32,000 bases of DNA from Acaryochloris thomasi RCC1774 (GCF_003231495.1 NZ_PQWO01000017.1:1-32000), one strand, 5' to 3'; shown: positions 1,143 to 27,707, numbered from the stretch's first letter. Notes: generated by a model from the sequence alone, not told the origin. A program made the numbers and translations.

Positions 1143-1161
1143 AACGATAATCGTTCTCATT
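1143..1161. promoter_or_regulatory. Zur-box-like operator (AACGATAATCGTTCTCATT) upstream of the porin gene
   Basis: Close variant of the palindrome repeated at 5142, 14816, 21396 and 27691. It lies 88 nt upstream of the porin ATG. A TTGACA hexamer on the minus strand (plus coords 1168-1173) sits just upstream of it. Confidence 0.65.
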
Positions 1162-1235
1162 TTTTCTTGTCAAGGGGCTTCACGATATTGTTTCTGGAGG
1201 TATTCATGTTTGAAGCCTTGATGAGAGGGTGATCT

Positions 1236-2072
1236 TTAAGAACTTCTTGACAGCCTAGGGTAAATCATAGCGCCCAAAAAGAGTCCCAGTTGAGCCATCA
1301 CAATGCTCGGCCCTGACGGTAAATTCATGGTCGCCGATAGTCCCATCCCCACCACAGCACTGATGGCCCCTAAGCTTGCTGATAGCACTACATGGTGGCT
1401 AAACCGCCGAGATAATAACTGGGATGCACAGGCTGGAATCACCACAAAGGCACTAATCAGCAGGACTCCAATGGCCTTAATGGCAATCCCCACGACCAAG
1501 GCCAGCAGCACAATAAAAGTGGTGCGATGGAATGAGACCGAAACGCCCCTTGCGATCGCAAATGGCTCATGCAACGTGATCAGCATTTGAGTCCGCAATG
1601 TGAGGCCAATAAATAAGGTGCAGGCTAGCAGTAAAACAGCGCTGAAGATCAAATCCGATTCTCGGACGGCCAAGATATCGCCAAACAGAAGCTGATGGAG
1701 CCCGCCTTTATAGGTGTCGGTGAAGCTGAGGACAATGACTGCGATCGCTAACGATGATGAATAGATAATGTTGAGCAACGCATCAGTCCATAGCTGGGTG
1801 CGCTCTAGTAGGTAAGTCACGCCCAGGGCAAACACCACCGCGAAGGGCAGCAAAACCGCCGTGGGGTTCCAGCCCAGAAGGACGGCAAAACTGAGGCCCA
1901 GCAGCGCAGAGTGCCCCAGAGCATCACTAAAGAAAGAGAGCTGACGCAGAATCGTAAAGCTCCCCAACATTCCACCCGCCAGCCCAGTAAGGACGCCGCT
2001 CAATACTGCCCGCTGCATAAACGGGAGCTGAAAGAGATCGGCAATTCGGACTATTTCACTAGCAAATGACAT
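1236..2072 (-). CDS. znuB: Zinc ABC transporter permease (ABC-3 family, ZnuB-like)
   Basis: Polytopic hydrophobic protein (MSFASEIVRIADLFQLPFMQRAVLSGVLTGLAGGMLGSF...) typical of ZnuB/TroC permeases. It is the last gene of the hemB-znuA-znuC-znuB string. I place the start at the ATG at 2072 (M35 of the track ORF) because the longer ORF would overlap znuC. Confidence 0.85.
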   Translation of the reverse strand: MSFASEIVRIADLFQLPFMQRAVLSGVLTGLAGGMLGSFTILRQLSFFSDALGHSALLGLSFAVLLGWNPTAVLLPFAVVFALGVTYLLERTQLWTDALLNIIYSSSLAIAVIVLSFTDTYKGGLHQLLFGDILAVRESDLIFSAVLLLACTLFIGLTLRTQMLITLHEPFAIARGVSVSFHRTTFIVLLALVVGIAIKAIGVLLISAFVVIPACASQLLSRRFSHHVVLSASLGAISAVVGMGLSATMNLPSGPSIVMAQLGLFLGAMIYPRLSRSS

Positions 2073-2106
2073 AGCGTTTGACGTGAGAAAACATGAGGCA
2101 ACAATC

Positions 2107-2892
2107 TTAATGCAATGTAGAGTCTGACATACAGGAATGATGGTACCGGGCGAACTCTGGCCCATATACGGCACTTAAGCTGTCGCGAGAGAGGGCAACA
2201 TCCGGCATTCCCTCACAGCGGAGGGTGCGATTCAGACACAGCACATGATCACACTGACGCTGCACCATATTGAGATCGTGAGAAACCTGCATAATGGCCC
2301 ATCCCTGCGTCTGCTTGAGCTGCTCCAGTAGCTGATAGAACTCTGCTTCGCCCCGCACATCTAAGCCTGCTGGCGCTTCATCTAAAACCAGCAGGCGGCG
2401 GGGCCGCACCAAGCAATAGGCCAGTAAAACACGCTTGGTTTCTCCCCCCGAAAGGCTGCTTACCCGTTTGTTTCTTAAGTGCAGGGCTTCGACTTGAGCC
2501 AGCGCTTGACGAACGGCCACCTGCCGTTCCCGCCGCCCTGCCCAAGGCCACTGGAAGCCCAGCGCGTGCCAGCCTAATCCCACCATTTCATCCACCGTCA
2601 TCGGAATGCGGCGATCGAAGATAAAGTTCTGAGGCAGGTAGGCGATCTGCTCTCGCACCCGGGCAGGCAGTACCCCTTTGGGACTGAGGCGATGGCCCAG
2701 TATTTCCACTTCACCACTGTGACAAGGCAGAATGCCCAACATTGCCTGAATCAATGTGCTTTTACCGGCCCCATTGGGACCGACAATCGCAACATTCGTC
2801 CCGGCCTGCACCGAAAATGAGACCTGTTCGACGGCAATATGGGTGTTGCGGGCCACCGTCAAGCCCGAGACCCGCACAATGAAATCTTGCAA
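2107..2892 (-). CDS. znuC: Zinc ABC transporter ATP-binding protein (ZnuC-like)
   Basis: Walker A GPNGAGKST, ABC signature LSGGETKR and Walker B LLVLDEA are present. The track ORF (to 2991) overlaps znuA. A TTG at 2892, preceded by AGGAGA, gives MQDFIVRVSGLTV and starts just after the znuA stop. The start codon remains uncertain. Confidence 0.85.
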   Translation of the reverse strand: MQDFIVRVSGLTVARNTHIAVEQVSFSVQAGTNVAIVGPNGAGKSTLIQAMLGILPCHSGEVEILGHRLSPKGVLPARVREQIAYLPQNFIFDRRIPMTVDEMVGLGWHALGFQWPWAGRRERQVAVRQALAQVEALHLRNKRVSSLSGGETKRVLLAYCLVRPRRLLVLDEAPAGLDVRGEAEFYQLLEQLKQTQGWAIMQVSHDLNMVQRQCDHVLCLNRTLRCEGMPDVALSRDSLSAVYGPEFARYHHSCMSDSTLH

Positions 2893-2902
2893 GCTGAATC
2901 TC

Positions 2903-4066
2903 CTAGAAATTGACCTGCACAAACTGAGGCAAGGTAGCAACAGTCCGCTGCCGGGATGGAGCCGGAACCCAAGACTGGGCTTGACCGCCAAAGGCCGCTG
3001 TTAAGTTTTTGAGATTCTCTCGCATCGCTGTTAAATAGTAGTCTGCTTCCAATGCCTCTGGACCACCAGATTCCAACGGATCAAAGGTGCCCACTTTCAC
3101 ATTGAGATCCTTCGCTAGGGCTTCGAAGGGGCTACCCGTGGCCTGGGGTTCTGATAGTAGCGTATTCAGGTTAGAGTCTTTGGCTGCCTTTAAAACCCGC
3201 TGCACGTCTTCTGGTTTGGCATTTTCTGCCGGGATGCCTACTAGGTACTCTACTTTCAAGCCGTAGCTGCCCGCAAAGTAGTCAGCAAAATCATGATAGG
3301 TGACGAAGGTTTTCCCGGCATAGGGCTTAAGCTGCTCGGTAAACTCAGCATCAAGATTTTTCAGCTCTTCGATATAGGCCGTCGCGTTGGCTTCATAGGT
3401 GGACTGGCCCTCGGGGTCAGCGGCTATCAATCCATCCCGAATATTCTCGACCTGCTGGATTACCCGTTTGGGATCAAGCCAGATGTGGGGATTGTTTTCG
3501 CCGTGGTCGTGTTCGGCGTGCTCCTCACCTTCAGCATGTTCTTCGTCTTCGGCATGCTCCTCACCTTCAGCGTGTTCTTCGCCTTCAGCATGTTCTTCGC
3601 CGTGGTCGTGTTTGCCTTCAGCGTGTTCTTCGCCTTTATGCTCCTCTTCTTCATTGGGGATTACGGTAATGCCTTGGCTCGAATCAATCACGGCTAGCTT
3701 GTCATTGCCCGCGTTTTTGACCATGTCTTCTAGAAATGCCTCCATCTCTAGGCCGTTTTCTATTAGCACATCGGCGGTGGTCAGCTTCTGTACATCTGCG
3801 GGTTTAGCTTGAAAGTCATGGGGGCCAACATTGTTGGGTAAAAGCTGGGTGACTTGGGCGCGATCGCCCGCTACTGCTTTCGTAAAATTCGTAATCGGTA
3901 CAAAGGTGGTCATTACCTGCAGCTTCTCGCCCCCTTGCGCCGCATTTGATTCTCCCGAAGGCGTCGAAGCACAACTGCCTAAGCCCACAGCCAGAGCTGA
4001 GATAAAGGCTACAGAGAGTCGAGCCGTAGATTGAGACTGATGAAAGAGAAAATGACTAAATTTCAT
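2903..4066 (-). CDS. znuA: Periplasmic zinc-binding lipoprotein of ABC transporter (ZnuA, cluster-9/TroA-like) with a long His/Glu-rich loop
   Basis: Signal peptide plus lipobox (ALAVGLGSCAS) and a TroA-like fold sequence (VMTTFVPITNFTKAV...NPHIWLDP...TYHDFADYF). A His/Glu-rich loop spans aa 139-194. Genetic linkage to znuC/znuB and the Zur box at 5142 support the call. Confidence 0.9.
   Translation of the reverse strand: MKFSHFLFHQSQSTARLSVAFISALAVGLGSCASTPSGESNAAQGGEKLQVMTTFVPITNFTKAVAGDRAQVTQLLPNNVGPHDFQAKPADVQKLTTADVLIENGLEMEAFLEDMVKNAGNDKLAVIDSSQGITVIPNEEEEHKGEEHAEGKHDHGEEHAEGEEHAEGEEHAEDEEHAEGEEHAEHDHGENNPHIWLDPKRVIQQVENIRDGLIAADPEGQSTYEANATAYIEELKNLDAEFTEQLKPYAGKTFVTYHDFADYFAGSYGLKVEYLVGIPAENAKPEDVQRVLKAAKDSNLNTLLSEPQATGSPFEALAKDLNVKVGTFDPLESGGPEALEADYYLTAMRENLKNLTAAFGGQAQSWVPAPSRQRTVATLPQFVQVNF
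3485..3652 (-). repeat. In-frame tandem 18-bp repeats (gaagaacatgctgaaggc = EEHAEG) building the ZnuA His-rich loop
   Basis: Protein reads EEEHKGEEHAEGKHDHGEEHAEGEEHAEGEEHAEDEEHAEGEEHAEHDHGENNPH. The DNA shows about six near-identical 18-bp units. These units also create the spurious antisense ORFs at 3293-3812. Confidence 0.9.
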
Positions 4067-4106: not shown

Positions 4107-5219
<1,113 letters not shown>

Positions 5220-5460: not shown

Positions 5461-6039
5461 TTAAGCCGCTGAGGTGAGTGCGAGGCCGCGATAGATTTGC
5501 TCGATCGCAAGGCTGAGGTCAATGCTTCGGAGTTCGATGGTGTCGCCTGCCTTGTAGTTGAGAATGATCCATTCGCCCGAGTCATTTTTGCGATACAGGT
5601 CAATTTCGATTTTGGTGGAGCTAACGAGTAGATAGTCTCGAAGAGCGGGGTTTTGGCGATACATCCTAAATTTGCCGCCGCGATCGTAGGCTTCGGTACT
5701 GTCGGACAGAACTTCAACAATGAGGCAGGGATAGGTAATGTATTGGATTGTGGTTTTGTCGCGATCGTCACAGGTAACGCTGGCGTCAGGGTAGGTGTAG
5801 TTGCTGGTTTCGAGGATATTGATTTTGATATCAGAATTGCCAGTGATGCAGCCCGTATTTTCTAGGTGGCTGTCGAATAGGGCGGTGAATCTGATGGCGA
5901 TGCGACCATGATTTACGCTGCCGCCGCTCATGGCATAGACTTGACCGTCAATATATTCATGTTTTTCTAGCTGCTGCTCTTCCCAAGCGAAGTAGGCTTC
6001 GGGGGTCAGTGGAGAGACGTTTTCCTGAGCAGCGATCAT
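5461..6039 (-). CDS. Uma2-family (DUF820) putative restriction endonuclease-like protein
   Basis: N-terminus LTPEAYFAWEEQQLEKHEYIDGQVYAMSGGSVNHGRIA and later PDASV...PCLIVEVLSDST match the pattern of the abundant cyanobacterial Uma2/DUF820 family. Confidence 0.75.
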   Translation of the reverse strand: MIAAQENVSPLTPEAYFAWEEQQLEKHEYIDGQVYAMSGGSVNHGRIAIRFTALFDSHLENTGCITGNSDIKINILETSNYTYPDASVTCDDRDKTTIQYITYPCLIVEVLSDSTEAYDRGGKFRMYRQNPALRDYLLVSSTKIEIDLYRKNDSGEWIILNYKAGDTIELRSIDLSLAIEQIYRGLALTSAA

Positions 6040-6970: not shown

Positions 6971-8074
6971 TTAATTTGCCTCCCCGAGATAGCAGTGACA
7001 ATCTGGCTTCTCAATCAACGAAGCCGCCAGCCGATTAAGTACCACTGCCGCCAGCAGGCCACCGCCCAGGGCGCTTTCAGTAGTCACGTAGGGCACCGAT
7101 AACTGCATCAACCGACGCTTGGCCGCTGGCGCATGACTAAACCCAATGGGCAGACCAATGACTAAGGCAGGCCGACCCACTCCCGTCTCGATGGCTTCGC
7201 AAAGTTTCATCAAGACTGATGGCGCGTAACCCACCATCCAGATATTGCCGTCTGTCAAATCCCGCAACCGCTGGTGCCAGCCGTTATCCTGCCAGAACTG
7301 CTGTTCCGCATCGGCGGCACTGTCTATATGGGGATTGTCCAGCAGCGTGGCCCATTGACAGCCTAAATGGGTAAGACGGGGTTGGTCTAGGGCCGCAATC
7401 ACGGCAGGAACGTCCCCCACTATGGTGCAGCCTGCAGATAGAGTCTCACGGGCTGCCTTGATGGCATCGGAACTAAAGCGCACGAAAGTCGCTAGGCTTA
7501 CATCGCCGCAGGCTAACACCAGGTGAGAGAGTACGTCCACTTCAATCTCAGGACGCTGCGAAAGATCGGGCAGCAAGCGAAAGAGAGCCTCCTGGAAGTG
7601 CTCAGGATGATCTGGGACAGCGGCATCGAGCTGCTGCCAAAGATCTTCGGTAAAGGCCGTCGCGGTCTCTGTTTCAGCCGCCAACTGCCGCAACTGTGCC
7701 AGGGCTTCAGCTTGGACAGACTGGCAAGCTTGGTCGCGTCCAATAAATCCCTCTAGAGCCGTAGCAGTCTGCCGGAGCTTGATCATCTGCTGCAAAACGG
7801 TTTGATACTGCTTCTGGAGCTGGTCCAATAAGGGGTCCACCGCCATCGGCTGGGACTGAGCGACTAGCATTTGCTGGATGTGGGAGAGCTGAAACCCCTG
7901 TTGTTTAAGGGCCACAATTCGCTGGAGGCGCTGTATATCGGCTGCGCTGTAGAGGCGATAGTTGCTGTGCGATCGCATCGGCTGGGGCAGCAGTCCAATC
8001 TGGTGATAGTGCCTCACCATCCGGGGGGTCGTGCCGTGACCAACGGATTGCGTCAGTTCTTTAATAGTCAACAT
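6971..8074 (-). CDS. coaR: MerR-family cobalt-responsive regulator fused to a precorrin-8X methylmutase (CbiC/CobH)-like domain, CoaR-like
   Basis: N-terminal MerR HTH (MLTIKELTQSVGHGTTPRMVRHYHQIGLL...YRLYSAADIQRLQRIVALKQQGF). The C-terminal half is CbiC-like (GYAPSVLMKLCEAIE...LVIGLPIGFSHAPAAKRRL...GGGLLAAVVLNRL). The tail has a Cys-His-Cys (KPDCHCY) like the Synechocystis CoaR sensor motif. Start placed at the ATG at 8074; the longer ORF would cross the divergent promoter. Confidence 0.85.
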   Translation of the reverse strand: MLTIKELTQSVGHGTTPRMVRHYHQIGLLPQPMRSHSNYRLYSAADIQRLQRIVALKQQGFQLSHIQQMLVAQSQPMAVDPLLDQLQKQYQTVLQQMIKLRQTATALEGFIGRDQACQSVQAEALAQLRQLAAETETATAFTEDLWQQLDAAVPDHPEHFQEALFRLLPDLSQRPEIEVDVLSHLVLACGDVSLATFVRFSSDAIKAARETLSAGCTIVGDVPAVIAALDQPRLTHLGCQWATLLDNPHIDSAADAEQQFWQDNGWHQRLRDLTDGNIWMVGYAPSVLMKLCEAIETGVGRPALVIGLPIGFSHAPAAKRRLMQLSVPYVTTESALGGGLLAAVVLNRLAASLIEKPDCHCYLGEAN

Positions 8075-8078
8075 ACCC

Positions 8079-8110
8079 TTGACCTTAACATCAATGTCAA
8101 GGTTTACCCT
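8079..8110 (+). promoter_or_regulatory. MerR-type operator-promoter of coaT: TTGACC -35, 20-bp spacer with a dyad, TACCCT -10
   Basis: The sequence is cTTGACCTTAACATCAATGTCAAGGTTTACCCT. The dyad ACCTTnACAT-nn-ATGTnAAGGT occupies 8082-8103. The over-long spacer (8085-8104) is the hallmark of MerR-activated promoters, and the layout resembles the CueR/ZntR boxes of E. coli copA/zntA. Confidence 0.75.
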
Positions 8111-8140
8111 GAGGAAGCTGTTAATGCTAAGGCTGCCCTG

Positions 8141-10111
8141 ATGGAGAATGTGACACAACTGAGGTTTCCACAACAGGGCCGGATTCCATCTTGGTTTAAA
8201 ACCTATCCTGCCGTCGCAACGGCTGCGCTGTGTGCCCTGCTAACGCTGCTGGGCTGGTTGGCGTTAGTGGCCGGGCAGGTGGGCGGGGCCGTCTGGATCT
8301 TGTTGATTGCCTACGGCATTGGGGGTTATGAAAGCGCTCGTGAAGGGTTAACGACCCTGTGGCAAGAACGGGAATTAGATGTCGATCTATTGATGATTGT
8401 GGCGGCTCTGGGGGCGGCCACCTTGGGGCTATGGCAGCGGGAGTATTATTTGCTGGTGGATGGGGCAATTTTGATCTTAATCTTTGCCATCAGCGGAGCC
8501 TTAGAAGATATTGCCCTCCAGCGCACCGAGCGCAATATTCGGAGCCTGATGCAGCTCACTCCAGATACCGCTTGGCGGTGGCAAGGCGGTCAAACGCAGC
8601 GGATCAAAACGCAGCAGTTGCAGGTGGGCGATCGCATCCTGATCAAACCGGGCGAACTCATTCCCACGGACGGTGTGGTCCAGACTGGCAGCAGTACGGT
8701 GAATCAGGCGACGTTAACCGGCGAGTCGATTCCAGTGGAGAAAGGCATTGGGGATGAAGTCTTCGGGGGCACCCTCAACGGCAGTGGAGCGATCACGGTC
8801 GAGCTGCACCAGCCCCCAGAGAGCAGCCTGATTCAGCGAGTGATCCGCTTAGTGGAGCAGGCCAAAACCTCGCAGCCGCGATCTCAATTATTTTTAGAAA
8901 AATTCGAGCGGGGCTATGCCCGCCTGATTGTCGGCGTCGGGTTGCTCCTGGCAATAATGCCGCCCCTCTTGCTGGCCTGGAGTTGGGAAACCACTATCTA
9001 CCGAGCCTTGATTTTTCTGGTGGTGGCCTCCCCCTGCGCCCTAATGGCGGCGATTATGCCCACCTTACTCTCTGGGATTGCTCAGGGGGCACGACAGGGG
9101 ATTCTATTTAAAGATGGTGCTCAGTTGGAAACGATGGGGCGAATTGAGGCGATCGCCTTCGATAAAACCGGCACCCTAACCACGGGCGTTCTGCAGGTCA
9201 GCGATCTAGTGCCTGCTGCAGGCGTCGCCGCGAATCATGTGCTACAGGTGGCGGCTTCCCTAGAGGCTTATTCCGAGCATCCCATTGCGGATGCGATTGT
9301 GGCTGAGGCCCAACAGCAGGGACTGTCGCTTTTGTCAGCCAATGCTGTTCAAGCTGCGATAGGTCAGGGCATTGTCGGTCATCTAGCCGGAACCCTAACC
9401 CGGATCGGTAAACCTCAGTTTGTCACGGCAGATCTGTCCGAAACGGCAGACTCTCATCTGCTTCAGGCCAGCCATCAGCTAGAAGCCACCGGCAAAACCG
9501 TGATCTGGGTCACGGAGCAGCAGCACTTGATCGGACTTTTGGCCGTCGCCGATCAGATACGTCCCCAAGCCGCTCAAGTCTTAGCTATCCTCAAGCAACT
9601 GGGAATTGCGACGGTGATTCTGACGGGGGATAATGCCGCCACCGCTCAGACCCTTGCCCAACTTGTGGCGGTAGAAGCCGTCTACGCCGATTTACTACCG
9701 GAGGACAAAGTAGATGCCATTGAAAAACTCCAGCAGCAGTACGGCACCGTGGCGATGGTGGGGGATGGCATTAACGATGCTCCGGCTCTGGCTCAAGCCT
9801 CGGTGGGCATTGCGATGGGGACGACGGGCAGTGATGTAGCTTTAGAGACGGCGGATGTGGTGTTGATGGGCGATCGTTTAGAGAAACTCACGCAGGCGAT
9901 TGGTATTGGAGCCAAGTCTCAACGGATTGTCAAACAGAATATTGCTCTAGCGCTGACCTCTATTGCCCTGTTGATGGTAGCTAACTTCTTTGGTGAACTG
10001 ACCTTGCCTGCTGGGGTGCTGGGGCACGAGGGGGCAACGTTGTTGGTAACGCTCAATGGCTTGCGATTACTGAGAACCGATGCCGCTATCGCCTCTATAT
10101 CTTACTTGTAG
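8141..10111 (+). CDS. coaT: P1B-4-type heavy-metal (cobalt) exporting ATPase, CoaT-like
   Basis: SPC motif in a TM helix (LVVASPCALMAA), DKTGTLT phosphorylation site, GDGINDAPAL, and HEGATLLVTLNGLRLL in the last TM helix. No N-terminal HMA domain. Start placed at the ATG at 8141 (MENVTQL), downstream of the MerR-type promoter; the track ORF start at 7871 is inside coaR. Confidence 0.85.
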   Translation: MENVTQLRFPQQGRIPSWFKTYPAVATAALCALLTLLGWLALVAGQVGGAVWILLIAYGIGGYESAREGLTTLWQERELDVDLLMIVAALGAATLGLWQREYYLLVDGAILILIFAISGALEDIALQRTERNIRSLMQLTPDTAWRWQGGQTQRIKTQQLQVGDRILIKPGELIPTDGVVQTGSSTVNQATLTGESIPVEKGIGDEVFGGTLNGSGAITVELHQPPESSLIQRVIRLVEQAKTSQPRSQLFLEKFERGYARLIVGVGLLLAIMPPLLLAWSWETTIYRALIFLVVASPCALMAAIMPTLLSGIAQGARQGILFKDGAQLETMGRIEAIAFDKTGTLTTGVLQVSDLVPAAGVAANHVLQVAASLEAYSEHPIADAIVAEAQQQGLSLLSANAVQAAIGQGIVGHLAGTLTRIGKPQFVTADLSETADSHLLQASHQLEATGKTVIWVTEQQHLIGLLAVADQIRPQAAQVLAILKQLGIATVILTGDNAATAQTLAQLVAVEAVYADLLPEDKVDAIEKLQQQYGTVAMVGDGINDAPALAQASVGIAMGTTGSDVALETADVVLMGDRLEKLTQAIGIGAKSQRIVKQNIALALTSIALLMVANFFGELTLPAGVLGHEGATLLVTLNGLRLLRTDAAIASISYL

Positions 10112-17221: not shown

Positions 17222-17522
17222 AGATAAAGATGGTGTCTAGAACAACCGCAAAGAAATCAGTCCACATTGGATACTCACGAGATCGAGCGCAGGCCAGCTC
17301 TAATAAGCGGTTGCAGCAGACGAAAATTCCGCTATGTGAAATTTTTGCGTCTGTACCAAAACGTTAGATATCAGCCATCCAAAAACTCAATTAAGTGACC
17401 AAGTGTTGTGGTTGATGTCGGCGGAAAACGCGATCGCTATCTTGAACAAGTTGCTTACGACAACATGCATAACGACGGATCGATAGCATAGATAAAACTC
17501 TTGGTCAAAGCTGTGCAGATTG

Positions 17523-18201: not shown

Positions 18202-18282
18202 TACTAAATCTTATCGAATGTAAATCCTGTATTGGTGAGATCGCACTCAACCTCATTCTTCTGCTGACGGGCTGGCTGTTGT

Positions 18283-18924: not shown

Positions 18925-18959
18925 TTTTTACTCCACAGGTTTAAATTCAAGTGAACCCA

Positions 18960-19445
18960 TCAAAGCTGTGTCGGATTGGGGGTATCCCCATAGATCAGTT
19001 GAGGGTCAAAGGTTTTTGCGGTTTCTGTAAAGGTCAATGTAATGGGATAGTTTTCCCTCACCGCTTCCGTTCCCAAAGGAATTTGACGATAAAAACAAGA
19101 TCGATACCCCACATGGCAACTGGCTCCAGAGTCTGCAACAGTCACCCGCATCCAAAGGCAGTCTTGATCATCATCAATCAGCAATTGCTGGACGTATTGG
19201 ATCAAGCCACTGGTCGCGCCTTTGTGCCAGAGGGTCTGACGACTGCGGCTGTAGTAATGGGCTTCTCCGGTTTCGATAGTTTTGACCAAGGCGGCCTGAT
19301 TCATATAGGCATGCATCAATAGTTCGCCTGTCTGGGCATCGGTTGTCACAACAGGAATTAAGCCCGCTTGATTAAATTTGGGCGCGAGGGACGTGCCTTC
19401 TTCGACAGCTTCTACACAGGTGCGATCCGCAAATAGAGTCGTCAT
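18960..19445 (-). CDS. hisI: Phosphoribosyl-AMP cyclohydrolase, monofunctional HisI paralog
   Basis: [48 protein letters not shown]...DCLWMRV....[10 protein letters not shown] is the canonical HisI pattern including the Cys/His metal-ligand positions. There is no HisE domain. Confidence 0.85.
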
Positions 19446-19505
19446 GGTAAACCTCGGTGATCACGATGGATGGAAACAGATACAGCTTTCATCAGTTCTC
19501 CTGAT

Positions 19506-21356
19506 CTAAATCTTTTGTTTAGCGTCAATGGCTGACTGCATTTTTTCGTACAGGTCACAGAGCGTTAACGGTCCCTGCTCTCCTGCCTGTCGGGTGCGAA
19601 TACTGAGGGTCTGGTTTTCCACTTCTCGCTTGCCCACGACCGCCACAACAGGAATTTTTTCTAGGGCAGCCAAACGAATTTGTTTCCCTAGACGCTCGCC
19701 GCTCCTATCGACCTCAGCTCGCCAGCCTTTCTGCGTAAGCTGGTTTAAGACTTCAAAGGCATACTCTTGCTGGGCATCACTGACGGTTAGCAATCGAATC
19801 TGCGTCGGCGCTAACCACAGCGGGAAATCCCCGGCATAGTTCTCGATCAAGATGCCAAAGAACCGCTCTAGCGATCCAAAAATGGCTCGATGGATCATGA
19901 TCGGGCGCTGCCGTGATCCGTCTGCGGCCACGTATTCCATCTCGAAGCGCTCTGGCAAGTTGAAATCGACTTGAATGGTGGAACATTGCCACAGCCGCCC
20001 GATCGCATCTCGAATCTTCAGATCGATTTTGGGACCATAGAACGCGCCGCCGCCCTCATCCGTGAGGTAATCCCAACCCTTACGCTCCAGGGCTGTGCTC
20101 AATGCCTGGGTGGCTAAGTCCCAAATGTCATCGCTGCCGACGGATTTGTCAGGCCGGGTTGAGAGGTTGATTTCATAATCGCTAAAGCCAAAGTCAGACA
20201 GCACCTTTTCGGTGAGATTCAGGACGGCCAAAATCTCATCCGCCACCTGATCAGGCAGACAAAAGACGTGGGCGTCATCTTGAGTAAAGCCCCTGACCCG
20301 CATCAGTCCATGCAGTGTCCCGGAGCGTTCGTAACGATAGACCGTTCCCAGCTCGGCCCACCGTAGGGGAAACTCTCGATAGGAGTGGAGTTCATGCTGG
20401 TAGGTGAGCACATGAAAGGGGCAGTTCATCGGCTTGATCTGATAATCCTGAGTTTCCACCGCCATTTGATCAAACATGCTGTCGCGGTAGAACTCAAAAT
20501 GGCCGGACGTTTTCCAGAGATCAAGATTGGCGATGTGGGGCGTATAGAGTAGCTCATACCCTGCTGCTAAATGTGCCTGCCGCCAGTAGTCTTCGATGAT
20601 GTGGCGAATCCTGGCCCCGCGAGGATGCCAAAAGACCAGCCCCCCTCCAGCAGCCTCTTCAATACTGAACAGCTTCAGTGTCTTTCCCAAAAGACGGTGA
20701 TCTCGGCGCTGAGCCTCTTCTTTTTGGTGTAGGTAGGCTTTTAACTGCTTTGGAGTTTCCCAGGCGGTTCCATAGATCCGCTGCAGTTGAGCTTGGGTTT
20801 CATCGCCACGCCAATAAGCTCCAGCGACACTTTCGAGCATGAATGCCTTTGAATGCAGCTCGCCTGTACTGTTGAGATGGGGACCCGAGCACAGATCCCA
20901 CCAAAATTCATCAGGGGCCACTGACAACGGAGCAATCAGCGAGGCTTCCGCCTCTGGATGCTGTGTCCGGCCTGTGTCAGGACTGCCAATGAAATAGCGG
21001 GTAATCGCTTCCTCTGCAGGAATCTGGGCCAATATTTCTAATTTGTAGGGTTCTTGCAACTGTTCTAGTTCAGCCGTCATCTGATCGCGATCCACTTGTT
21101 CGCGGATGATGGGCAAATTGGCCTTGATGATGCGCCGCATCTGAGTTGCGATCGCATCCAGATCCTCTGGCGTAAAAGCCTGGGCACGGTCAAAGTCATA
21201 GTAGAAACCTGTCTCAGTCGTTGGACCAATCGTCACCTTTGTCTCAGGAAACAGATGCTGCACCGCCATAGCCATCACATGAGCGCAGGTGTGGCGAAGT
21301 CGCTGTAGCTGTTCGGTGGAATTAGGCGCTGACAGCGTACGAGAAACGGTAGACAT
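19506..21356 (-). CDS. thrS: Threonyl-tRNA synthetase paralog lacking the N-terminal TGS domain
   Basis: Begins 20 aa before the editing-domain RHTCAH motif (E. coli has about 68 aa before RHSCAH). The catalytic Zn-ligand contexts are retained (PMNCPFH, FTQDDAHVFC, IMIHRAIFGSLERF). The divergent folE starts only 143 nt upstream, which is too little room for a TGS domain. Confidence 0.9.
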   Translation of the reverse strand: MSTVSRTLSAPNSTEQLQRLRHTCAHVMAMAVQHLFPETKVTIGPTTETGFYYDFDRAQAFTPEDLDAIATQMRRIIKANLPIIREQVDRDQMTAELEQLQEPYKLEILAQIPAEEAITRYFIGSPDTGRTQHPEAEASLIAPLSVAPDEFWWDLCSGPHLNSTGELHSKAFMLESVAGAYWRGDETQAQLQRIYGTAWETPKQLKAYLHQKEEAQRRDHRLLGKTLKLFSIEEAAGGGLVFWHPRGARIRHIIEDYWRQAHLAAGYELLYTPHIANLDLWKTSGHFEFYRDSMFDQMAVETQDYQIKPMNCPFHVLTYQHELHSYREFPLRWAELGTVYRYERSGTLHGLMRVRGFTQDDAHVFCLPDQVADEILAVLNLTEKVLSDFGFSDYEINLSTRPDKSVGSDDIWDLATQALSTALERKGWDYLTDEGGGAFYGPKIDLKIRDAIGRLWQCSTIQVDFNLPERFEMEYVAADGSRQRPIMIHRAIFGSLERFFGILIENYAGDFPLWLAPTQIRLLTVSDAQQEYAFEVLNQLTQKGWRAEVDRSGERLGKQIRLAALEKIPVVAVVGKREVENQTLSIRTRQAGEQGPLTLCDLYEKMQSAIDAKQKI

Positions 21357-21395
21357 AGAGGGATTAGAGATAACGGCAATGGGTTGCCCATGAAT

Positions 21396-21412
21396 ATGAT
21401 AATGATTATCAT
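21396..21412. promoter_or_regulatory. Zur box (ATGATAATGATTATCAT) in the divergent thrS / folE intergenic region
   Basis: The best palindrome of the five. It lies 40 nt from the thrS ATG (21356) and 88 nt from the folE ATG (21500), so it is positioned to control both divergent operons. Confidence 0.8.
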
Positions 21413-21499
21413 TATACTTGCCAGTCTCCAGTTTGCTTCTGTATTGAAATCGACTGGACTTCGGAGTTCCCTATATCCCTTTCTACGTTAGGAGTTTGT

Positions 21500-22135
21500 A
21501 TGACCCTGTCTTCGATGCCCTCGTTTGTGCCTGATACTATTGCCACTGAGGCTAAACCCATCGTTTCGGAAGCACAAATGCAGGACGCCGTCCGCACATT
21601 GTTGCTGGGCATGGGGGAAGATCCTGATCGAGAGGGGCTGCGAGATACCCCCAAGCGAGTCGTCAAATCTTTAAAATTTCTGTCCTCCGGGTATCAAATG
21701 TCCCTGGATGAGTTGCTCAATGGGGCCGTCTTTTCCGAGAACTTAGACGAGATGGTCTTAGTGCGTGATATTGACCTGTTTAGTTCCTGCGAACATCACA
21801 TTCTGCCGATTTTGGGTAAAGCCCATGTTGCCTATATTCCCAACGGCAAAGTTATTGGCCTCTCTAAAATTGCCCGCATTTGTGAGATGTACGCTCGGCG
21901 GCTACAGGTGCAAGAACGGTTGACCGCCCAGATTGCCGATGCCTTGCAGGGACTGCTCAAGCCCCAAGGTGTGGCCGTCGTTGTCGAAGCCACCCATATG
22001 TGCATGGTGATGCGGGGGGTACAAAAACCTGGCTCTTGGACCTCGACGAGCGCCATGCGGGGCGCGTTTGCCGGTGATGCCCGTACCCGCCAAGAGTTTT
22101 TCAATCTGGTTGCTCATTCCGCTGCAATTCGTTAA
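21500..22135 (+). CDS. folE: GTP cyclohydrolase I, type 1 (FolE; Zn-ligand motifs retained)
   Basis: [20 protein letters not shown] and [11 protein letters not shown] motifs are present. The gene is preceded by an AGGAG RBS. Confidence 0.9.
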
Positions 22136-22162: not shown

Positions 22163-23143
22163 ATGCTCCCCCTCCCTGGACAGTTTGAAAAACGCCTGCC
22201 CGTCACGATGATCACGGGATTTTTGGGCAGCGGTAAAACCACCCTGCTCAATCATCTGTTGGGGCATCTTGGCGGTCGGCGCGTGGCTGTGTTTGTCAAC
22301 GAATTTGGGGCCATTGATATTGATAGCCAAATTCTAGTGGCCGTTGATGAAGACATTGTTTCCCTCAAGAACGGCTGCGTATGCTGTCAGGTCAAGGAGG
22401 ACTTTCTAAGGGCGCTGAGGCGGGTGTTAGCCTACGACCACATGCAAAAAGCTGCAGGCAAGCAGGGCTTAGAGGCGATTCTCCTAGAAACATCGGGTGT
22501 GGCAGACCCCTATCCCATCATGCTCACCTTTAGGGTCAGTGAGCTGTGGAGCCTGACTCGCCTCGATGCGGTGCTAACGGTGGTAGATGCAGAAACGTTT
22601 ACCGCTGAGCACTTCCAGAGTCAGACTGCCCTCCGTCAGATCCAGTACGGAGATATTATTTTACTCAACAAGGCCGATCTCGTAGGGGACAAACAGCTCA
22701 GTCATTTAGAGGCTGAAATTAAGCGCCTTAAGCCCCAAGCAAGGGTCCTACCCATGACCTATGGTCAAGTCCCGTTATCGAGTGTTCTCGATGTGGCACT
22801 CTTCTCAGGTGACAGAGAAGCAAGTGCTGCGCCAGCCACCCTGCATATACAAGACGATGGCTTTGTTGCCGTGCCCTTTGAAAGCGATCGCCCCTTCGTG
22901 CTCAAAAAATTTCAGCAGTTTTTGGACTACCAGTTACCTGCAGATGTCTTTCGGGCCAAGGGCGTTCTTTGGTTTACAGAAAGCCCCCACAGGCATCTGT
23001 TTCAACTGAGCGGTAAGCGGAGCCAGTTTCAGGATGAATCTTGGTTTCAGCCGCCCAAAAATCAACTGGTGTGTATCGGTCGCAACTTAGATTCAGAACA
23101 ATTACAGCAACAGCTCCAGCAGTGTTTAGCCTTGACCCATTGA
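22163..23143 (+). CDS. COG0523-family (CobW/ZigA/YeiR-like) metallochaperone GTPase
   Basis: P-loop ITGFLGSGKTTLLNHLL, metal-binding GCVCCQV (CxCC), ETSGVADP, LLNKADL and a CobW C-terminal domain (FRAKGVLWF...QLVCIG). Confidence 0.85.
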   Translation: MLPLPGQFEKRLPVTMITGFLGSGKTTLLNHLLGHLGGRRVAVFVNEFGAIDIDSQILVAVDEDIVSLKNGCVCCQVKEDFLRALRRVLAYDHMQKAAGKQGLEAILLETSGVADPYPIMLTFRVSELWSLTRLDAVLTVVDAETFTAEHFQSQTALRQIQYGDIILLNKADLVGDKQLSHLEAEIKRLKPQARVLPMTYGQVPLSSVLDVALFSGDREASAAPATLHIQDDGFVAVPFESDRPFVLKKFQQFLDYQLPADVFRAKGVLWFTESPHRHLFQLSGKRSQFQDESWFQPPKNQLVCIGRNLDSEQLQQQLQQCLALTH

Positions 23144-23147: not shown

Positions 23148-23924
23148 ATGAGTACTCCCTCTTTTCTCGCCGTTTCTGGTCCCCCTGGCAGTGGTAAAAC
23201 CACCTGGATTAAACAATTTCTCAAAGATGAAACGGCTCCCTTGTTTTATCTCTATCCGGGGTTAGGCAACGTTTCCGTAGATCTGATGCGGATTGGCTAT
23301 ACCTTTCCCTGGGTGCAGGTGATTCCTGAGAGCCAAATACAGCAGGCACTCACCGCACTGCCAGACCAGGCGGTGGTTTACCTAGAGCTGGGCTTTCACC
23401 TGAATTTAGACTCACCATTTCTCAGCGCTTTGCCCTGCCATCAAGTTGCAGTGCTCCCCCCTGATCTCCAAGACTCTGAATGGCATCAATGGGCCGATGA
23501 AATTTGTCTGGGCAACGATATTGCGACTCCTGATGTAGCCAAGCCGCCTGAGCTATGGCATACGCCTCTACAGGGACAGGTCTTTGATCCCCCTAGCTTA
23601 GAGGTCGTGTTGACTGAAATAGCAGGGGGAGCCTACGGTAAAGTCCATCGCTTAAAAGGCATTTTTGAGATGCCCGATGGACAAGCCCTTAGCATCGATT
23701 TTGTAGCAGGGCTAGAGGGCATCGAATATACCGAACTGAATATACCTCGTTGGCTAGAGGGACGCCCCCATCGCTACAGCGGCGTTGAGGTGATCGGCGA
23801 CAACCTAGAGCAAGAGATCATTGCTCAGACCCTATTGGATAGCAGCTTGGCAGATGAGACGCTCTCCTATTATCAACAGCAATACAAGACCTTAGAGCCA
23901 GTCGAGGAGGCTGTTTCTGTATGA
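23148..23924 (+). CDS. Degenerate COG0523-like P-loop protein lacking the CxCC metal motif
   Basis: P-loop VSGPPGSGKTTWIKQFL and a CobW_C-like end (VHRLKGIFEMPDGQALSIDFV), but no CxCC and no NKxD-like motif. It starts 4 nt after the preceding stop and overlaps the next gene by ATGA. Confidence 0.6.
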   Translation: MSTPSFLAVSGPPGSGKTTWIKQFLKDETAPLFYLYPGLGNVSVDLMRIGYTFPWVQVIPESQIQQALTALPDQAVVYLELGFHLNLDSPFLSALPCHQVAVLPPDLQDSEWHQWADEICLGNDIATPDVAKPPELWHTPLQGQVFDPPSLEVVLTEIAGGAYGKVHRLKGIFEMPDGQALSIDFVAGLEGIEYTELNIPRWLEGRPHRYSGVEVIGDNLEQEIIAQTLLDSSLADETLSYYQQQYKTLEPVEEAVSV

Positions 23925-24733
23925 AACTCGCAGTGATTTCCTGTATTCATGGCAACGTTGAGGCACTCAATGCCGTGCTCTCTGATATCGATCGCCAGCA
24001 AACCGATCAGATTTACTGTCTCGGCGATCTGGTGGGCTACGGTCCCCATCCCAACGCAGTGGTGGAGATGATTCGTTCCCTCGATATTCCCACCTGTCAG
24101 GGCTGCTGGGACGAAGATATTGTCGATGGCCTCAATGCCTGTGACTGTAGTTATCCTTCACAGTTAGCAGAAAAGCGAGGGAAGCAAGCCCATGAATGGA
24201 CGGACCGAGTCGTTCATCCAGAGGTGCGGGAGTATTTAGCAAGTCTGCCGATCACATTGCAATCTGAAAATCTGGCCTTTGTTCACGGTAGCCCCAACAG
24301 TCAGCATGAATATCTACTCCCCAGCATGGACGGATTTGCCGCCCTAGAACGGGTCTTATCCACCGGGGCAGATGTCTTGTTCTGCGGTCATACCCATGTC
24401 CCCTACGTGCGTGATCTAGCCGATGGCAAACTTTCGATGCGGGTTCATCAACCTGGAAAAGAAGAAACACAGCAGCAGTCCACGGTTTCCCTGAAGCGGA
24501 TTATCAATGCCGGATCGGTGGGAGAGCCTCGCCACGGACGACCCAATGCGACCTATGTTCTCTATGACACAGAGACGGCACAGGTCACACTCCGAGAAGT
24601 GCCCTACGACTATACAAAAACCTGTTTAGCCATTATTGAGCAGGGCTTACCGCCTATTTTTGCATGGCGATTGGCGCGGGGGATGGAGTTTGCAGAACGG
24701 GCTGATGATCCTAGTCATGTGTGTCAGCGGTAG
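23921..24733 (+). CDS. Metallophosphoesterase-family protein with Cys substitutions in metal motifs and a CxxC...CxC insert
   Basis: Motif I reads ISCIHGN (Cys where DxH has Asp). Motif II is LGDLVGYGP, motif IV FVHGSP and motif V CGHTHVP. The motif III region reads CQGCWDEDIVDGLNACDCSYP. Confidence 0.75.
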   Translation: MKLAVISCIHGNVEALNAVLSDIDRQQTDQIYCLGDLVGYGPHPNAVVEMIRSLDIPTCQGCWDEDIVDGLNACDCSYPSQLAEKRGKQAHEWTDRVVHPEVREYLASLPITLQSENLAFVHGSPNSQHEYLLPSMDGFAALERVLSTGADVLFCGHTHVPYVRDLADGKLSMRVHQPGKEETQQQSTVSLKRIINAGSVGEPRHGRPNATYVLYDTETAQVTLREVPYDYTKTCLAIIEQGLPPIFAWRLARGMEFAERADDPSHVCQR

Positions 24734-24758: not shown

Positions 24759-25496
24759 ATGGAACAGTGGGCTATCTTAAGCGGGATAGAAGGTAATCTC
24801 GATGCATATGAGGCGGTGCTGGCCGATATCCGGCGACAGCGCTATCCGGTAACGGACCTCTATGTCTTAGGAGATATTGTGGGACTTAAGGGCGACAACC
24901 GGGCTGTGATGCGGCGGCTTCAGTCTCCGCGCGCCGGGGAATTAGAACCCCAGGTTTGTATCGGCTGGTGGGAAGAGCAGTGTTTTAATTTGTACGGGTT
25001 GGGCGGATTGCCCGATGCGCCAGAGTTAATAGAGCAAGAGGGGGCCGACGCTGTGCAGCACCTCTGGGAGTCAGTATCACGGGAGGCGGTGGACTGGATG
25101 CGATCGCTTCACTTTGGGTTTCACGAACTCGACTGTCTCTTGATTCACGGCAGCACGGTGGGCTACGCCGATGAACTCACGCCGGAGACGCCCGCGATTC
25201 AATTGTGCGATCGCCTGATTCGCGCTGATGCCAACAATCTATTCTGTGGACGTTCAGGCTTAGCCTTTGAATGCTGGATCGAACCAAGTGATCTATGCTC
25301 CACCGTCATGACCTTAGATGGAACACAGGCTCCTCAAACGCAAAATCGAACGCCCCGACGCATTGTCGGCGTTGGCAGCGTGGGGCGCACATTGGGACAA
25401 GCCACCTATACACTTTATAATCCTGCCAATAATCACATTACCTTCAAGACCGTGAAATATAGTAAAGCCAAGGGCTTTGCCCTGCAAAGCGCATAG
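24759..25496 (+). CDS. Metallophosphoesterase-like paralog with degenerate catalytic motifs (probable pseudo-enzyme)
   Basis: Collinear with the upstream gene, but motif I is LSGIEGN, motif V is CGRSG and the motif III region is CIGWWEEQC. GDIVG and LIHGS are retained. A strong RBS (AAGGAGG) precedes the ATG. Confidence 0.65.
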   Translation: MEQWAILSGIEGNLDAYEAVLADIRRQRYPVTDLYVLGDIVGLKGDNRAVMRRLQSPRAGELEPQVCIGWWEEQCFNLYGLGGLPDAPELIEQEGADAVQHLWESVSREAVDWMRSLHFGFHELDCLLIHGSTVGYADELTPETPAIQLCDRLIRADANNLFCGRSGLAFECWIEPSDLCSTVMTLDGTQAPQTQNRTPRRIVGVGSVGRTLGQATYTLYNPANNHITFKTVKYSKAKGFALQSA

Positions 25497-26343: not shown

Positions 26344-26653
26344 AGTTTGATGCCCTAACTAAAGCTTCCTAAAAAAGCAAGAACCGTTGATATACAGTCA
26401 TTACAGCCGATAAGGTTGACAGGGAGTGCACGGTCAAGTTGTGCATCCTCGACGTTATAGCCGATTTAGCTTTGTACGTGGAAATCCAAAGCTCTCAAAA
26501 AAAGAGATTTTGAGAACGAGTTTACAGAGGGTTCAGGGTCTATTTAGCTGGCTCAGACTTTTTCAGCAAGCCCTAACGTCCAAAATCACCGGGTCGCGAC
26601 AAGTGATTCTCCATTTGAATATACCCGGCTTCGCGATCCGGTACATTTTTTTG

Positions 26654-27139
26654 TTATACGTCGGTCTGAGTTGTGATTCGAGTGATTTGTCGACCAAGAA
26701 CTTTGCGGTTCGCGTGAATTTTCACGGGCAGGTCAGTGTTATAAGAATACAGTTCGTCGATGACGCCAGCCATGTGTTTTTTCGTCTCGACATCCTTTGA
26801 TTGAAGTGTTGATGCTATGGCACGATCGTATTCTTGTCGAAGCGATTTCATTTTACGATCGTCATGTCTACACGTAGGACAGTTTTTTGCATATGAATCG
26901 ACGTAGAAACCGAGTTGTTCGTACCATCGTTTTTGCTCAGCGGCGGTGAAGCAAAACTTCTCGGAGCAGCGAGAACATTTGAATGTGGCATCGACATACC
27001 AATGGCGTGGGCACACCGAGTAGTTTTGGCGAGACACATCAGCACGTACTGCAGAATCGTGATTGAGGTGCAAGCATTCCCAGAAGAAATGTCGGGGCAT
27101 GTTTACCGAACTGGTTTCGCCAAAGGAGTCCATGTGCAT
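26654..27139 (-). CDS. Zinc-ribbon domain protein (zf-trcl-like, four-Cys)
   Basis: CPRHWYVDATFKCSRCSEKFCFTAAEQKRWYEQLGFYVDSYAKNCPTCRH contains two Cys pairs flanking the conserved F-F-EQ-Y-GF pattern. The segment is AT-richer. Repeat copy C starts 8 nt upstream of the ATG. Confidence 0.65.
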   Translation of the reverse strand: MHMDSFGETSSVNMPRHFFWECLHLNHDSAVRADVSRQNYSVCPRHWYVDATFKCSRCSEKFCFTAAEQKRWYEQLGFYVDSYAKNCPTCRHDDRKMKSLRQEYDRAIASTLQSKDVETKKHMAGVIDELYSYNTDLPVKIHANRKVLGRQITRITTQTDV

Positions 27140-27146
27140 CCTTGAG

Positions 27147-27312
27147 GCGGATAACTACTAAATTCTACGGATAGCGGCTGATAACTCCGACTCTGAGGGC
27201 ATTATCCAGTAGTTTACTGCCATCAAGCCACCCCGTTTGGGAATCTTAAGATTGATATGCCTTTCCCCGTAAAGCTTTCAAGAATCCCTGTCCCTATCCA
27301 ACTTGTCAGCTC
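27147..27312 (-). repeat. Dispersed repeat family, copy C (one hairpin unit plus full tail)
   Basis: GGCGGATAACTACTAAATTCTACGGATAGCGGCTGATAACTCCG...GGGCATTATCCAG, followed by a tail aligning with 6822-6921. On the minus strand the tail carries TTGAAA-N17/18-TATCAA and the gene-proximal end carries TAGAAT. Confidence 0.8.
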
Positions 27313-27678
27313 TCTTTGACCACATCCGCGCAAACTTTCGCCATAAGGACTAGAGATCCAAGAGCGCAAAGCTCTGCCTATAGGGTATTGGCAGCTTTCC
27401 TGTCAATTAAGTCATGAGTCCATCTCTCGAACTCGAAGTTCAGACCATTCATGAGCACCCATTGCATCGGAAACCACTGTGTTTGACGCTCGAACGATCG
27501 CACCTCTCACCGATTGCGATCGCACAACCACTCCCAGATTTTATGAACAGGCTAGGGTTTGAAGCCTTATTCTCCTAAATAGACTGTGCTGAGAAACCAT
27601 CTTGGCGATTCTTAAGACTGGGAACCGCTATCTCACAGGCTCCTCACCCTGAATTAAGTTTCAACACAATGCCGCCTC

Positions 27679-27707
27679 TTGATATAGTGAATGATAATCA
27701 TTATCAT
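27679..27707 (+). promoter_or_regulatory. Promoter (TTGATA-N17-TATCAT) overlapped by a Zur box (ATGATAATCATTATCAT, 27691-27707) upstream of sufE-like/COG0523
   Basis: The -35-like TTGATA is at 27679-27684, followed by a 17-nt spacer and a -10-like TATCAT at 27702-27707. The palindrome covers the spacer and the -10, which is the classical repressor geometry. It lies 30 nt upstream of the ATG at 27737. Confidence 0.8.

Follow-up and report, generated by a model that had tools for sequence, protein, structure and literature searches.

Which regulator, if any, unites the genes that stand behind five copies of one 17-bp palindrome in a 32,000-nucleotide stretch of the Acaryochloris thomasi RCC1774 genome (GCF_003231495.1, NZ_PQWO01000017.1:1-32000; hereafter the window)? 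An earlier note, drawn by a model from the sequence alone, had read this palindrome as a Fur-family 7-1-7 operator matching the Zur (FurB) box of Anabaena/Nostoc and had proposed a zinc-limitation regulon. Our analysis led to the same view: the five boxes are very probably Zur operators, which would control a zinc-limitation regulon of six transcription units and ~18 genes. This reading is well supported by the identity of the motif, its position at promoters, the genes behind it and its phylogenetic footprint.

We searched the whole 32-kb window for ATGATAATNATTATCAT with up to three mismatches and compared the count with 100 shuffles. The search returned eight matches against 0.11 expected, and none of the 100 shuffles reached eight. 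Five of them are the palindromes of the earlier note, all of which were found at its coordinates (box 1 at 1144-1160), with no mismatch to the 17-mer at 21396-21412 (box 4) and 27691-27707 (box 5), one at 5142-5158 (box 2) and at 14816-14832 (box 3), and three at box 1. The remaining matches are a weak site at 21402, which overlaps box 4 with a 6-nt shift, and two at 28900 and 28903, both in coding sequence. These last two were rejected as operators, as they lie in the His-rich coding stretch of the second COG0523 gene (28897-28955, plus strand), where the insert HDHDHDHHGHGHHGHDHHHH is coded by ATCATGATCAT repeats that mimic half a Zur box. When we built a symmetrised position weight matrix from the sites and scored it across the window, the five sites obtained 23.3-30.0 bits and everything else 14.2 bits or less. 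A comparison set of 80 metagenomic loci with porin relatives (647 kb, not picked for zinc genes) held one site of at least 23 bits, against five in the window.

All five boxes are intergenic, as the earlier note had held, while only ~16% of the window is non-coding by our open reading frame (ORF) map, from which we estimate the chance of five out of five at ~1e-4. The distances to the start codons were 79 nt for the porin gene, 15 for hemB2, 82 for the DUF1636 gene, 39 for thrS2, 87 for folE2 and 29 for sufE; this range of 15-87 nt over six transcription units agrees with the 16-90 nt given before.

We then compared the boxes with published Zur sites of Anabaena. The consensus there is the 7-1-7 palindrome TGATAATNATTATCA, in the summary that PMC3323870 gives of Napolitano 2012. 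The sites listed in Table S3 of PMC10957091 include TGATAATCATTATCA (alr3242), TGATAATCATTATCG (all3515) and TGATAATAATAATCA; TGATAACCATTATCA is part of the probe for the high-affinity all4725 site, and some of the listed sites, all3515 and all4725, were tested by electrophoretic mobility shift assay (PMC10957091). The 15-bp cores in the window, CGATAATCGTTCTCA, TGATAATCGTTATCA, TGATAATCATTCTCA, TGATAATGATTATCA and TGATAATCATTATCA, all match the Anabaena consensus, and the last of them, from box 5, is the alr3242 site letter for letter. Judged by their sequence, the window boxes are the same element as the Anabaena Zur operator, and the assignment made in the earlier note holds.

The placement of the boxes on putative promoters is that expected for a repressor. 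A consensus scan for sigma-70-like promoters, which yields consensus matches and not mapped transcription starts, placed the −10 hexamer inside boxes 1, 2, 4 (on both strands) and 5 (Table 1). Because the hexamer lies inside the box, a repressor sitting on the palindrome would cover the −10, and the predicted operators overlap core promoter elements. Anabaena Zur sites likewise overlap −10 boxes (PMC10957091).

We identified the genes behind the boxes from Pfam, NCBIfam and PDB matches, with translations made from the window ORFs. About 18 genes in box-headed operons were counted, close to the 20 or so first proposed; inside the proposed operons, neighboring genes overlap or are at most 40 nt apart, except for 60 nt between thrS2 and hisI2. 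The downstream genes fall into the categories of a zinc-limitation response, namely uptake, COG0523 chaperones and zinc-enzyme paralogs. The earlier note had named hemB-, thrS-, folE- and COG0523-type paralogs as Zur targets, and they are documented as such: hemB2, thrS2, folE2, COG0523 and znuABC belong to the Anabaena Zur regulon (PMC6103462), and in Synechococcus 7002 both a zur mutation and the zinc chelator TPEN lift the repression of hemB-II, folE-II, the znu genes and the gene of a GTPase-like protein (PMC4628125). Haas 2009 predicted HisI, gamma-carbonic anhydrase (gamma-CA), HemB and ThrRS paralogs as Zur targets across bacteria (PMC2770081).

Table 1. Coordinates of the predicted features of the window, from left to right; boxes are the putative Zur operators, and promoters are written as −35 hexamer, spacer length and −10 hexamer.
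Feature	Coordinates	Strand	Details
SLH + OprB porin	2-1064	-	por_somb "iron uptake porin" family; N-terminal 354 aa in window; gene exits left end
Box 1, ACGATAATCGTTCTCAT	1144-1160		Weakest site, 23.3 bits; downstream of znuB, upstream of porin
Box 1 promoter	1173-1144	-	TTGACA-18-TATCGT; best promoter match in that half of window
znuB	1236-2072	-	Permease; Pfam ABC-3, 2.4e-58
znuC	2107-2991	-	ABC ATPase; Pfam ABC_tran; true start probably near 2880
znuA	2903-4066	-	Periplasmic zinc-binding protein, long His/Glu-rich loop; Pfam ZnuA, 6.6e-74
hemB2	4107-5126	-	Porphobilinogen synthase, Mg-type (zinc-independent); Pfam ALAD
Box 2, ATGATAATCGTTATCAT	5142-5158		Upstream of hemB2
Box 2 promoter	5170-5142	-	CTGACC-17-TATCAT
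Uma2 nuclease	5461-6039	-	
MerR-CbiC fusion regulator	6971-8173	-	Precorrin isomerase-like; ends in CHC
P-type ATPase	about 8200-10111	+	SPC and HEGAT motifs; divergent from MerR-CbiC
FeoB-like GTPase/Gate-domain permease	11502-13163	-	Pfam MMR_HSR1, FeoB_N, Gate
Pyr_redox_3 flavoprotein	13199-14320	-	Pfam 3.8e-96; C-terminal CC-x3-C-x-C tail
DUF1636 protein	14341-14733	-	First gene of operon 3; Pfam 1.4e-35
Box 3, ATGATAATCATTCTCAT	14816-14832		28.2 bits; upstream of DUF1636 gene
Toxin-antitoxin pair	15149-15666	+	
DUF3644 gene	15968-17221	+	
Toxin-antitoxin pair	17523-18201	-	
gamma-CA, stand-alone	18283-18924	-	Homologous to CcmM N-terminal domain
hisI2	18960-19445	-	Phosphoribosyl-AMP cyclohydrolase paralog; Pfam PRA-CH
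thrS2	19506-21356	-	Threonyl-tRNA synthetase paralog; Pfam
Box 4, ATGATAATGATTATCAT, with overlapping weak site shifted 6 nt	21396-21418		Common operator of two divergent promoters
Box 4 plus promoter	21384-21412	+	TTGCCC-17-TATCAT
Box 4 minus promoter	21424-21396	-	CTGGCA-17-TATCAT
folE2	21500-22135	+	GTP cyclohydrolase I (type IA) paralog; Pfam 6.4e-75
COG0523 metallochaperone GTPase, first	22163-23143	+	Pfam cobW + CobW_C; GCVCC motif
Short P-loop/CobW_C-like protein	23148-23924	+	Weak CobW_C match; without CxCC motif
Metallophosphoesterase 1	23921-24733	+	Pfam Metallophos_2
Metallophosphoesterase-like 2	24759-25496	+	No Pfam match; paralogous partner of metallophosphoesterase 1
Box 5, ATGATAATCATTATCAT	27691-27707		Core = Anabaena alr3242 site
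Box 5 promoter	27679-27707	+	TTGATA-17-TATCAT
SufE-family sulfur-acceptor paralog	27737-28180	+	Pfam SufE, 1.1e-42
COG0523 metallochaperone GTPase, second	28200-29255	+	Pfam cobW + CobW_C; His-rich insert
tRNA-Cys (GCA)	29576-29646	-	Just downstream of last Zur unit

In HemB2 an Asp-rich DxALDxxxxxGHDG motif replaces the Cys-rich zinc site; it aligns with the same motif of the Chlorobium enzyme 1W1Z, and the best PDB matches of the protein, 1W1Z and 1B4K, are non-zinc enzymes (the Mg-type class is used here as defined in literature cited in Haas 2009). ThrS2 keeps its three zinc-ligand motifs on inspection of the translation, and no TGS domain was detected in it by Pfam; ThrS2 paralogs stay active at low zinc in Anabaena (PMC4787780). 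The zinc ligands of FolE2 are retained in the CEHH and HMCM motifs of the alignment. Aligned to 1ZPS and to paralogs, HisI2 keeps two of the three ligand cysteines, with DDDxDC in place of DCDxD (the first zinc-ligand Cys) and a two-residue insertion; the variant is shared with Rubidibacter (locus L083, 9860-10345; numbers with L are our labels for the loci compared), and the HisI paralogs of Trichormus plasmid A, Klebsiella and Haloferax keep DCD. Metallophosphoesterase 1 has orthologs of 70-73% identity in the Picosynechococcus and Trichormus plasmid clusters (L088 and L089), and by tblastn metallophosphoesterase-like 2 is 51-59% identical to the second phosphatase gene of both.

The gamma-CA matched CcmM209 of T. 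elongatus (3KWC, an active fragment) with E = 3e-91 and retains the His ligand motifs and the C-terminal Cys pair. It did not qualify as a CcmM carboxysome scaffold, covering positions 1-208 of 320 of the model at 385 bits against a cut-off of 550 and having no RuBisCO_small domain. The predicted protein is a stand-alone domain equivalent to CcmM209, without RbcS-like (SSUL) repeats. In other cyanobacteria we observed a Zur-box-linked gamma-CA paralog of ~310 aa that keeps one RbcS-like domain (L081 3282-4229, L083 10361-11296, L172, L173, L174), and this may be a form of the carboxysomal CA/scaffold used under zinc limitation. A cysteinyl-tRNA synthetase paralog, cysS2, absent from the window, was seen in box-headed clusters of several cyanobacteria and of Paracoccus (L081 4314-5774, L174 7261-8745, L171 7103-8461, L172 21242-21644).

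Comparison with relatives showed that boxes precede orthologous operons in more than 10 other cyanobacterial genomes and plasmids. Genes with such a conserved box before them are thrS2, hemB2, sufE, the flavoprotein/FeoB-like pair, the hisI/CcmM-like genes and the trio of short GTPase and phosphoesterases. The ThrS2 orthologs of four genomes (L001, L002, L003 and L006; 71-79% identity) each have a box 60-170 nt upstream. A Leptolyngbyaceae metagenome-assembled genome (MAG; L006) repeats most of the island, with box-hemB2-znuABC, box-thrS2-DUF1636 and box-sufE-COG0523-COG0523, and a box-headed sufE-COG0523 is found in L174 as well. Plasmid A of Trichormus variabilis (L089) carries box-hemB, box-thrS-DUF1636-COG0523-methyltransferase-hisI and box-short GTPase-phosphoesterase-phosphatase, and a Picosynechococcus plasmid (L088) has the short protein and two phosphoesterases beside folE and hemB, with boxes; the trio is conserved and box-headed in both. 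In L174, at least four boxes and ~17 genes of this kind occupy 14 kb, and a MerR-CbiC/P-type ATPase pair resembling that of the window (16698-19888) comes after them. The earlier note had called such a concentration of boxes unusual, a claim that did not survive this comparison: because relatives carry 3-5 boxes per 12-20 kb (L006, L083, L084, L089, L174), clustering of Zur units is the rule in the group and no oddity.

Two further observations concern the boxes of these loci. Many Zur sites are two overlapping boxes with a shift of exactly 6 nt (window 21402-21418; L083 6734; L084 1721; L085 14957 and 16357; L172 8731; L173 8660), an arrangement with which two dimers could bind on opposite faces, a mode reported for the Anabaena all3515 promoter. 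In addition, high-scoring boxes at L084 12740 (Crocosphaera), L089 11089 (Trichormus plasmid A) and L085 16351 and 30729 (Acaryochloris pREB2) have other genes at their side: metH (B12-dependent methionine synthase, a zinc enzyme) downstream, an adjoining lanthipeptide precursor gene, and, again downstream, a small gene annotated only as "transcriptional repressor" and a formamidase gene.

We propose the following model for the window. When zinc is sufficient, zinc-loaded Zur dimers would bind the 7-1-7 inverted repeat; at boxes 1, 2, 4 and 5, where a half-site doubles as the −10 hexamer (TATCAT or TATCGT), RNA polymerase would be blocked by the bound repressor, and the single box at 21396 would serve a pair of divergent promoters. 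Under zinc scarcity, Zur would shed its sensing zinc and leave the DNA, and the six units would be expressed. They would supply an uptake group (SLH/OprB porin, ZnuABC and possibly the FeoB-like permease), the COG0523 metallochaperones, substitutes or extra copies of zinc enzymes (Mg-type HemB2, ThrS2, FolE2, HisI2 and the CcmM-like gamma-CA) and a set of conserved proteins that have no assigned role (DUF1636, the four-Cys flavoprotein, SufE, the short GTPase-like protein and the two phosphoesterases).

Several points weigh against this model, and part of them would favor iron over zinc. No Fur-family or zur gene was found among the window ORFs. Three units carry iron-type annotations (the por_somb porin, the FeoB-like protein and SufE), the porin belonging to the "iron uptake porin" family NF033921, and TGATAATNATTATCA is, as reported by Baichoo and Helmann in 2002, also the classical 7-1-7 consensus for Fur boxes in other bacteria (E. 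coli and B. subtilis). The boxes would then be operators of an iron-responsive Fur (FurA), and the island, or at least the porin, FeoB-like and SufE units, would answer iron starvation. There are precedents, since in Synechocystis Fur regulates a por_somb porin and an island of 32 kb with 11 boxes (PMC8634477), and FurA co-regulates the znu genes of Anabaena, which makes cross-talk possible (PMC4005646). However, the FurA consensus of Anabaena is AAATAAATTCTCAATAAAT, different from TGATAATNATTATCA (PMC4005646), sites of the window type are bound by Anabaena Zur (PMC10957091), and the identical box type heads znuABC, COG0523 and Mg-type hemB2. Moreover, in Paenibacillus the flavoprotein/FeoB-like pair lies behind a Zur-specific box beside S14 and L33 paralogs; the pair adjoins zinc genes in Klebsiella and Haloferax, and the flavoprotein alone does so in Paracoccus. 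Given the FurA consensus of Anabaena, the genes behind the boxes and the Zur-specific box of Firmicutes, we rejected Fur in place of Zur and consider it very improbable.

A different doubt is whether all five boxes work, or only boxes 2, 4 and 5 are true Zur operators while box 1, and possibly box 3, are decayed or chance look-alikes. Box 1, with its three mismatches, has the lowest score of the five. At box 3 a half-site provides a TATCAT −10 on the minus strand, but no good −35 goes with it (TGGCTA, a 3/6 match read by eye). The conservation of the porin unit, which we followed in the 80 metagenomic loci, is patchy, with boxes near about four of the 80 porin relatives and none in the available 150 nt upstream of the closest one (L090, 61% identity); in Anabaena no porin-like gene is known as a Zur target (PMC9705863). 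Nevertheless, box 1 scores 9 bits above the best non-site and sits on the best promoter match of its half of the window. Boxes lie 50-170 nt upstream of the porin relatives in L142, L130 and L128, and the porin of L091 (58% identity) comes after a ZnuA-like gene with a box at its head. Box 3 reaches 28.2 bits, and its flavoprotein/FeoB-like genes are box-headed in all seven other cyanobacterial contexts. We regard the loss of these two boxes as unlikely, if less so than control by Fur. A third possibility is that the repeat regulates nothing and is either a scattered mobile or structural element or an A+T-rich palindrome arisen by chance. Such an origin would suit the mobile-type genes of the window (two toxin-antitoxin pairs, DUF3644 and Uma2) and the low-GC patches between operons. 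A larger repeat or mobile element was rejected, as only ~17-19 bp are shared and the flanks differ; no shuffle reached the observed count, every copy is at a promoter, and the motif recurs upstream of orthologs in distant genomes and on plasmids, a conservation by which this idea is effectively refuted.

Within the proposed Zur regulon, the porin unit is the weakest part. The earlier note gave no name for the gene behind box 1; we identified it as an SLH/OprB porin by its Pfam SLH and OprB domains and a score of 242.7 bits to NF033921 (cut-off 100). Zinc regulation of this porin appears likely but not secure, and the protein is a candidate outer-membrane entry route for zinc.

The unit behind box 3 holds genes without an established place in zinc homeostasis. 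Its DUF1636 gene also follows thrS2 in L003, L006 and L089. In the flavoprotein, C366, C367, C371 and C373 are invariant in an alignment of eight sequences from three phyla (45-84% identity), and equivalent four-Cys tails are found in the Haloferax, Paracoccus and Enterococcus homologs. Its neighbor failed as an equivalog of FeoB (95 bits against 315.65 for TIGR00437 and 36 against 683 for NF007105); the predicted protein is FeoB-like, sharing the G domain and the Gate domains only, and is not FeoB. It has hundreds of cyanobacterial orthologs of 66-94% identity, and in several genomes the flavoprotein gene overlaps or abuts the FeoB-like gene.

To follow this pair, we compared the loci L081-L084, L172-L174, L086, L087, L170 and L171. 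In the seven cyanobacterial contexts (Egbenema, Calothrix, Rubidibacter, Crocosphaera, Leptolyngbya SIO1E4, Leptothoe and a Leptolyngbyaceae MAG) the box either lies 37-50 nt upstream of the flavoprotein gene or heads an operon containing the pair. In Paenibacillus, COG0523, rpsN, the flavoprotein and the FeoB-like gene come after TCGTAATTATTACGA, a perfect match to the Firmicute Zur box that differs from the Fur box of Firmicutes, and a second box lies before rpmG; the pair is here near COG0523 and the S14 and L33 paralogs. The order in Klebsiella pneumoniae (L086) is gamma-CA, COG0523, flavoprotein/FeoB-like, COG0523 and hisI2, with enterobacterial Zur-like palindromes before the flavoprotein gene and before hisI2, and matches to the flavoprotein were obtained in 499 Klebsiella plasmid records. 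The pLVPK cluster was assigned to Zur by Haas 2009, who did not mention the flavoprotein or the FeoB-like gene (PMC2770081). In Haloferax (L170) COG0523 is followed by the flavoprotein, S14, the FeoB-like gene and hisI, and in Paracoccus (L171) aztABC, a Fur-family repressor, COG0523, the flavoprotein (without its FeoB-like partner) and cysS stand together. The flavoprotein homolog of an Enterococcus plasmid had no obvious zinc neighbors, the only box being one with two mismatches 2.5 kb away.

No paper linking the flavoprotein or the FeoB-like protein to Zur or zinc was found in the literature searched. We tentatively propose, with confidence somewhat short of even, that the box-headed flavoprotein and the translationally coupled FeoB-like permease form an undescribed, ancient zinc-limitation module, which could serve redox-assisted metal import or mobilisation. 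As a working idea, the pair might act as a GTP-gated permease with a flavoprotein that handles thiol-bound or redox-dependent metal species.

The "FAD-dependent oxidoreductase" G0132 is derepressed in a zur mutant of Synechococcus 7002 (PMC4628125). We rejected the window flavoprotein as an ortholog of this Zur-regulated protein: the sister-strain plasmid (L088) has another flavoprotein family and gave no tblastn match. This second, unrelated family (Pyr_redox_2/NAD_binding_9), probably that of G0132, occurs in zinc-limitation clusters (L084 471-1682, L088 4757-6022, L173 6939-8552, L170 2579-3868). In the cyanobacterial ones (L084, L088 and L173) its genes adjoin Zur boxes; Haloferax L170 was covered for gene content only.

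Between the units of the window lie a Uma2 nuclease, two GNAT acetyltransferases, a MerR-CbiC regulator divergent from a P-type ATPase, two toxin-antitoxin pairs, DUF3644, a treble-clef zinc-finger protein and one ORF without a family match. The GC content falls to 0.44 at 10-11, 16-18 and 26-27 kb, dips that coincide with accessory genes, and the low-GC toxin-antitoxin, DUF3644 and Uma2 genes are consistent with accessory or mobile insertions. The earlier note had described the locus as broken up by unrelated insertions, which stands for these genes. It does not for the MerR-CbiC/P-type ATPase pair, which we take to match the CoaR/CoaT cobalt-efflux pair of Synechocystis: this is a metal system, and a coaR/coaT-like pair also adjoins the Zur island in L174 as a recurrent neighbor. 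Rfam and ARAGORN, run on the window for RNA elements, returned the tRNA-Cys only.

How does the locus compare with known systems? The Zur (FurB, All2473) regulon of Anabaena/Nostoc PCC 7120, including the all4725-all4721 operon, has the same TGATAATNATTATCA operator over −10 boxes, as relayed from Napolitano 2012 by PMC6103462, PMC3323870 and PMC10957091. It shares hemB2, thrS2, folE2, COG0523 and znuABC as targets, and its logic, in which zinc-loaded Zur represses and zinc limitation derepresses, is extended to the window by likeness of sequence. Gene order and the make-up of the operons differ, however: in the window hemB2 is joined in an operon with znuABC, and thrS2 and folE2 are divergent; the outer-membrane candidate of the window is an SLH/OprB porin and not a TonB-dependent receptor, and hisI2, the CcmM-like gamma-CA, sufE, the DUF1636/flavoprotein/FeoB-like genes and the phosphoesterases are extras. 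The Zur regulon of Synechococcus sp. PCC 7002 (a znu cluster plus hemB-II, folE-II, G0131 and G0132 on pAQ7; PMC4628125) has hemB2 and folE2 in common with the window, and also the clustering of short GTPase-like and phosphoesterase genes, as in the sister-strain plasmid L088; boxes lie there at the divergent promoter and before hemB. Unlike the window, it comprises seven genes only, its flavoprotein G0132 is NAD_binding_9-like and not Pyr_redox_3, and its phosphoesterase is not derepressed in the zur mutant (PMC4628125).

Predicted proteobacterial Zur clusters (Pseudomonas, Klebsiella pLVPK; PMC2770081) share COG0523 and the HisI, gamma-CA, HemB, ThrRS/CysRS and FolE paralogs, and Klebsiella L086 has the flavoprotein/FeoB-like pair as well. 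The enterobacterial Zur operator differs, being GTTATGTTATAAC, and the proteobacterial FolE2 is of the zinc-independent FolE1B type, whereas the window FolE2 keeps its zinc ligands. The Fur islands of Synechocystis 6803/6714 (~32 kb, 11 Fur boxes; PMC8634477) resemble the window in having one metal regulator, many boxes, bidirectional promoters, tens of genes and a por_somb porin target, but they answer to Fur and iron through a 21-23-nt motif and carry other cargo genes.

Taken as a Zur regulon, the locus bears out the picture already drawn from Anabaena and Synechococcus 7002 and changes no concept. Its value lies in a compact, sequence-defined list of zinc-limitation genes from a Leptolyngbya/Thermosynechococcus-like cyanobacterium that includes conserved members without an assigned zinc role. 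The SLH/OprB porin is a possible outer-membrane route for zinc where only TonB-dependent receptors are known Zur targets, and the stand-alone CcmM-type gamma-CA may link zinc supply to the carbon-concentrating mechanism. Other such members are the SufE paralog paired with COG0523 and the short GTPase-like protein with its two phosphoesterases. The strongest lead is the flavoprotein/FeoB-like pair: because it is also present in the putative Zur cluster of Klebsiella pLVPK-type virulence-plasmid records, it could matter for nutritional immunity as well as for the trace-metal ecology of cyanobacteria.

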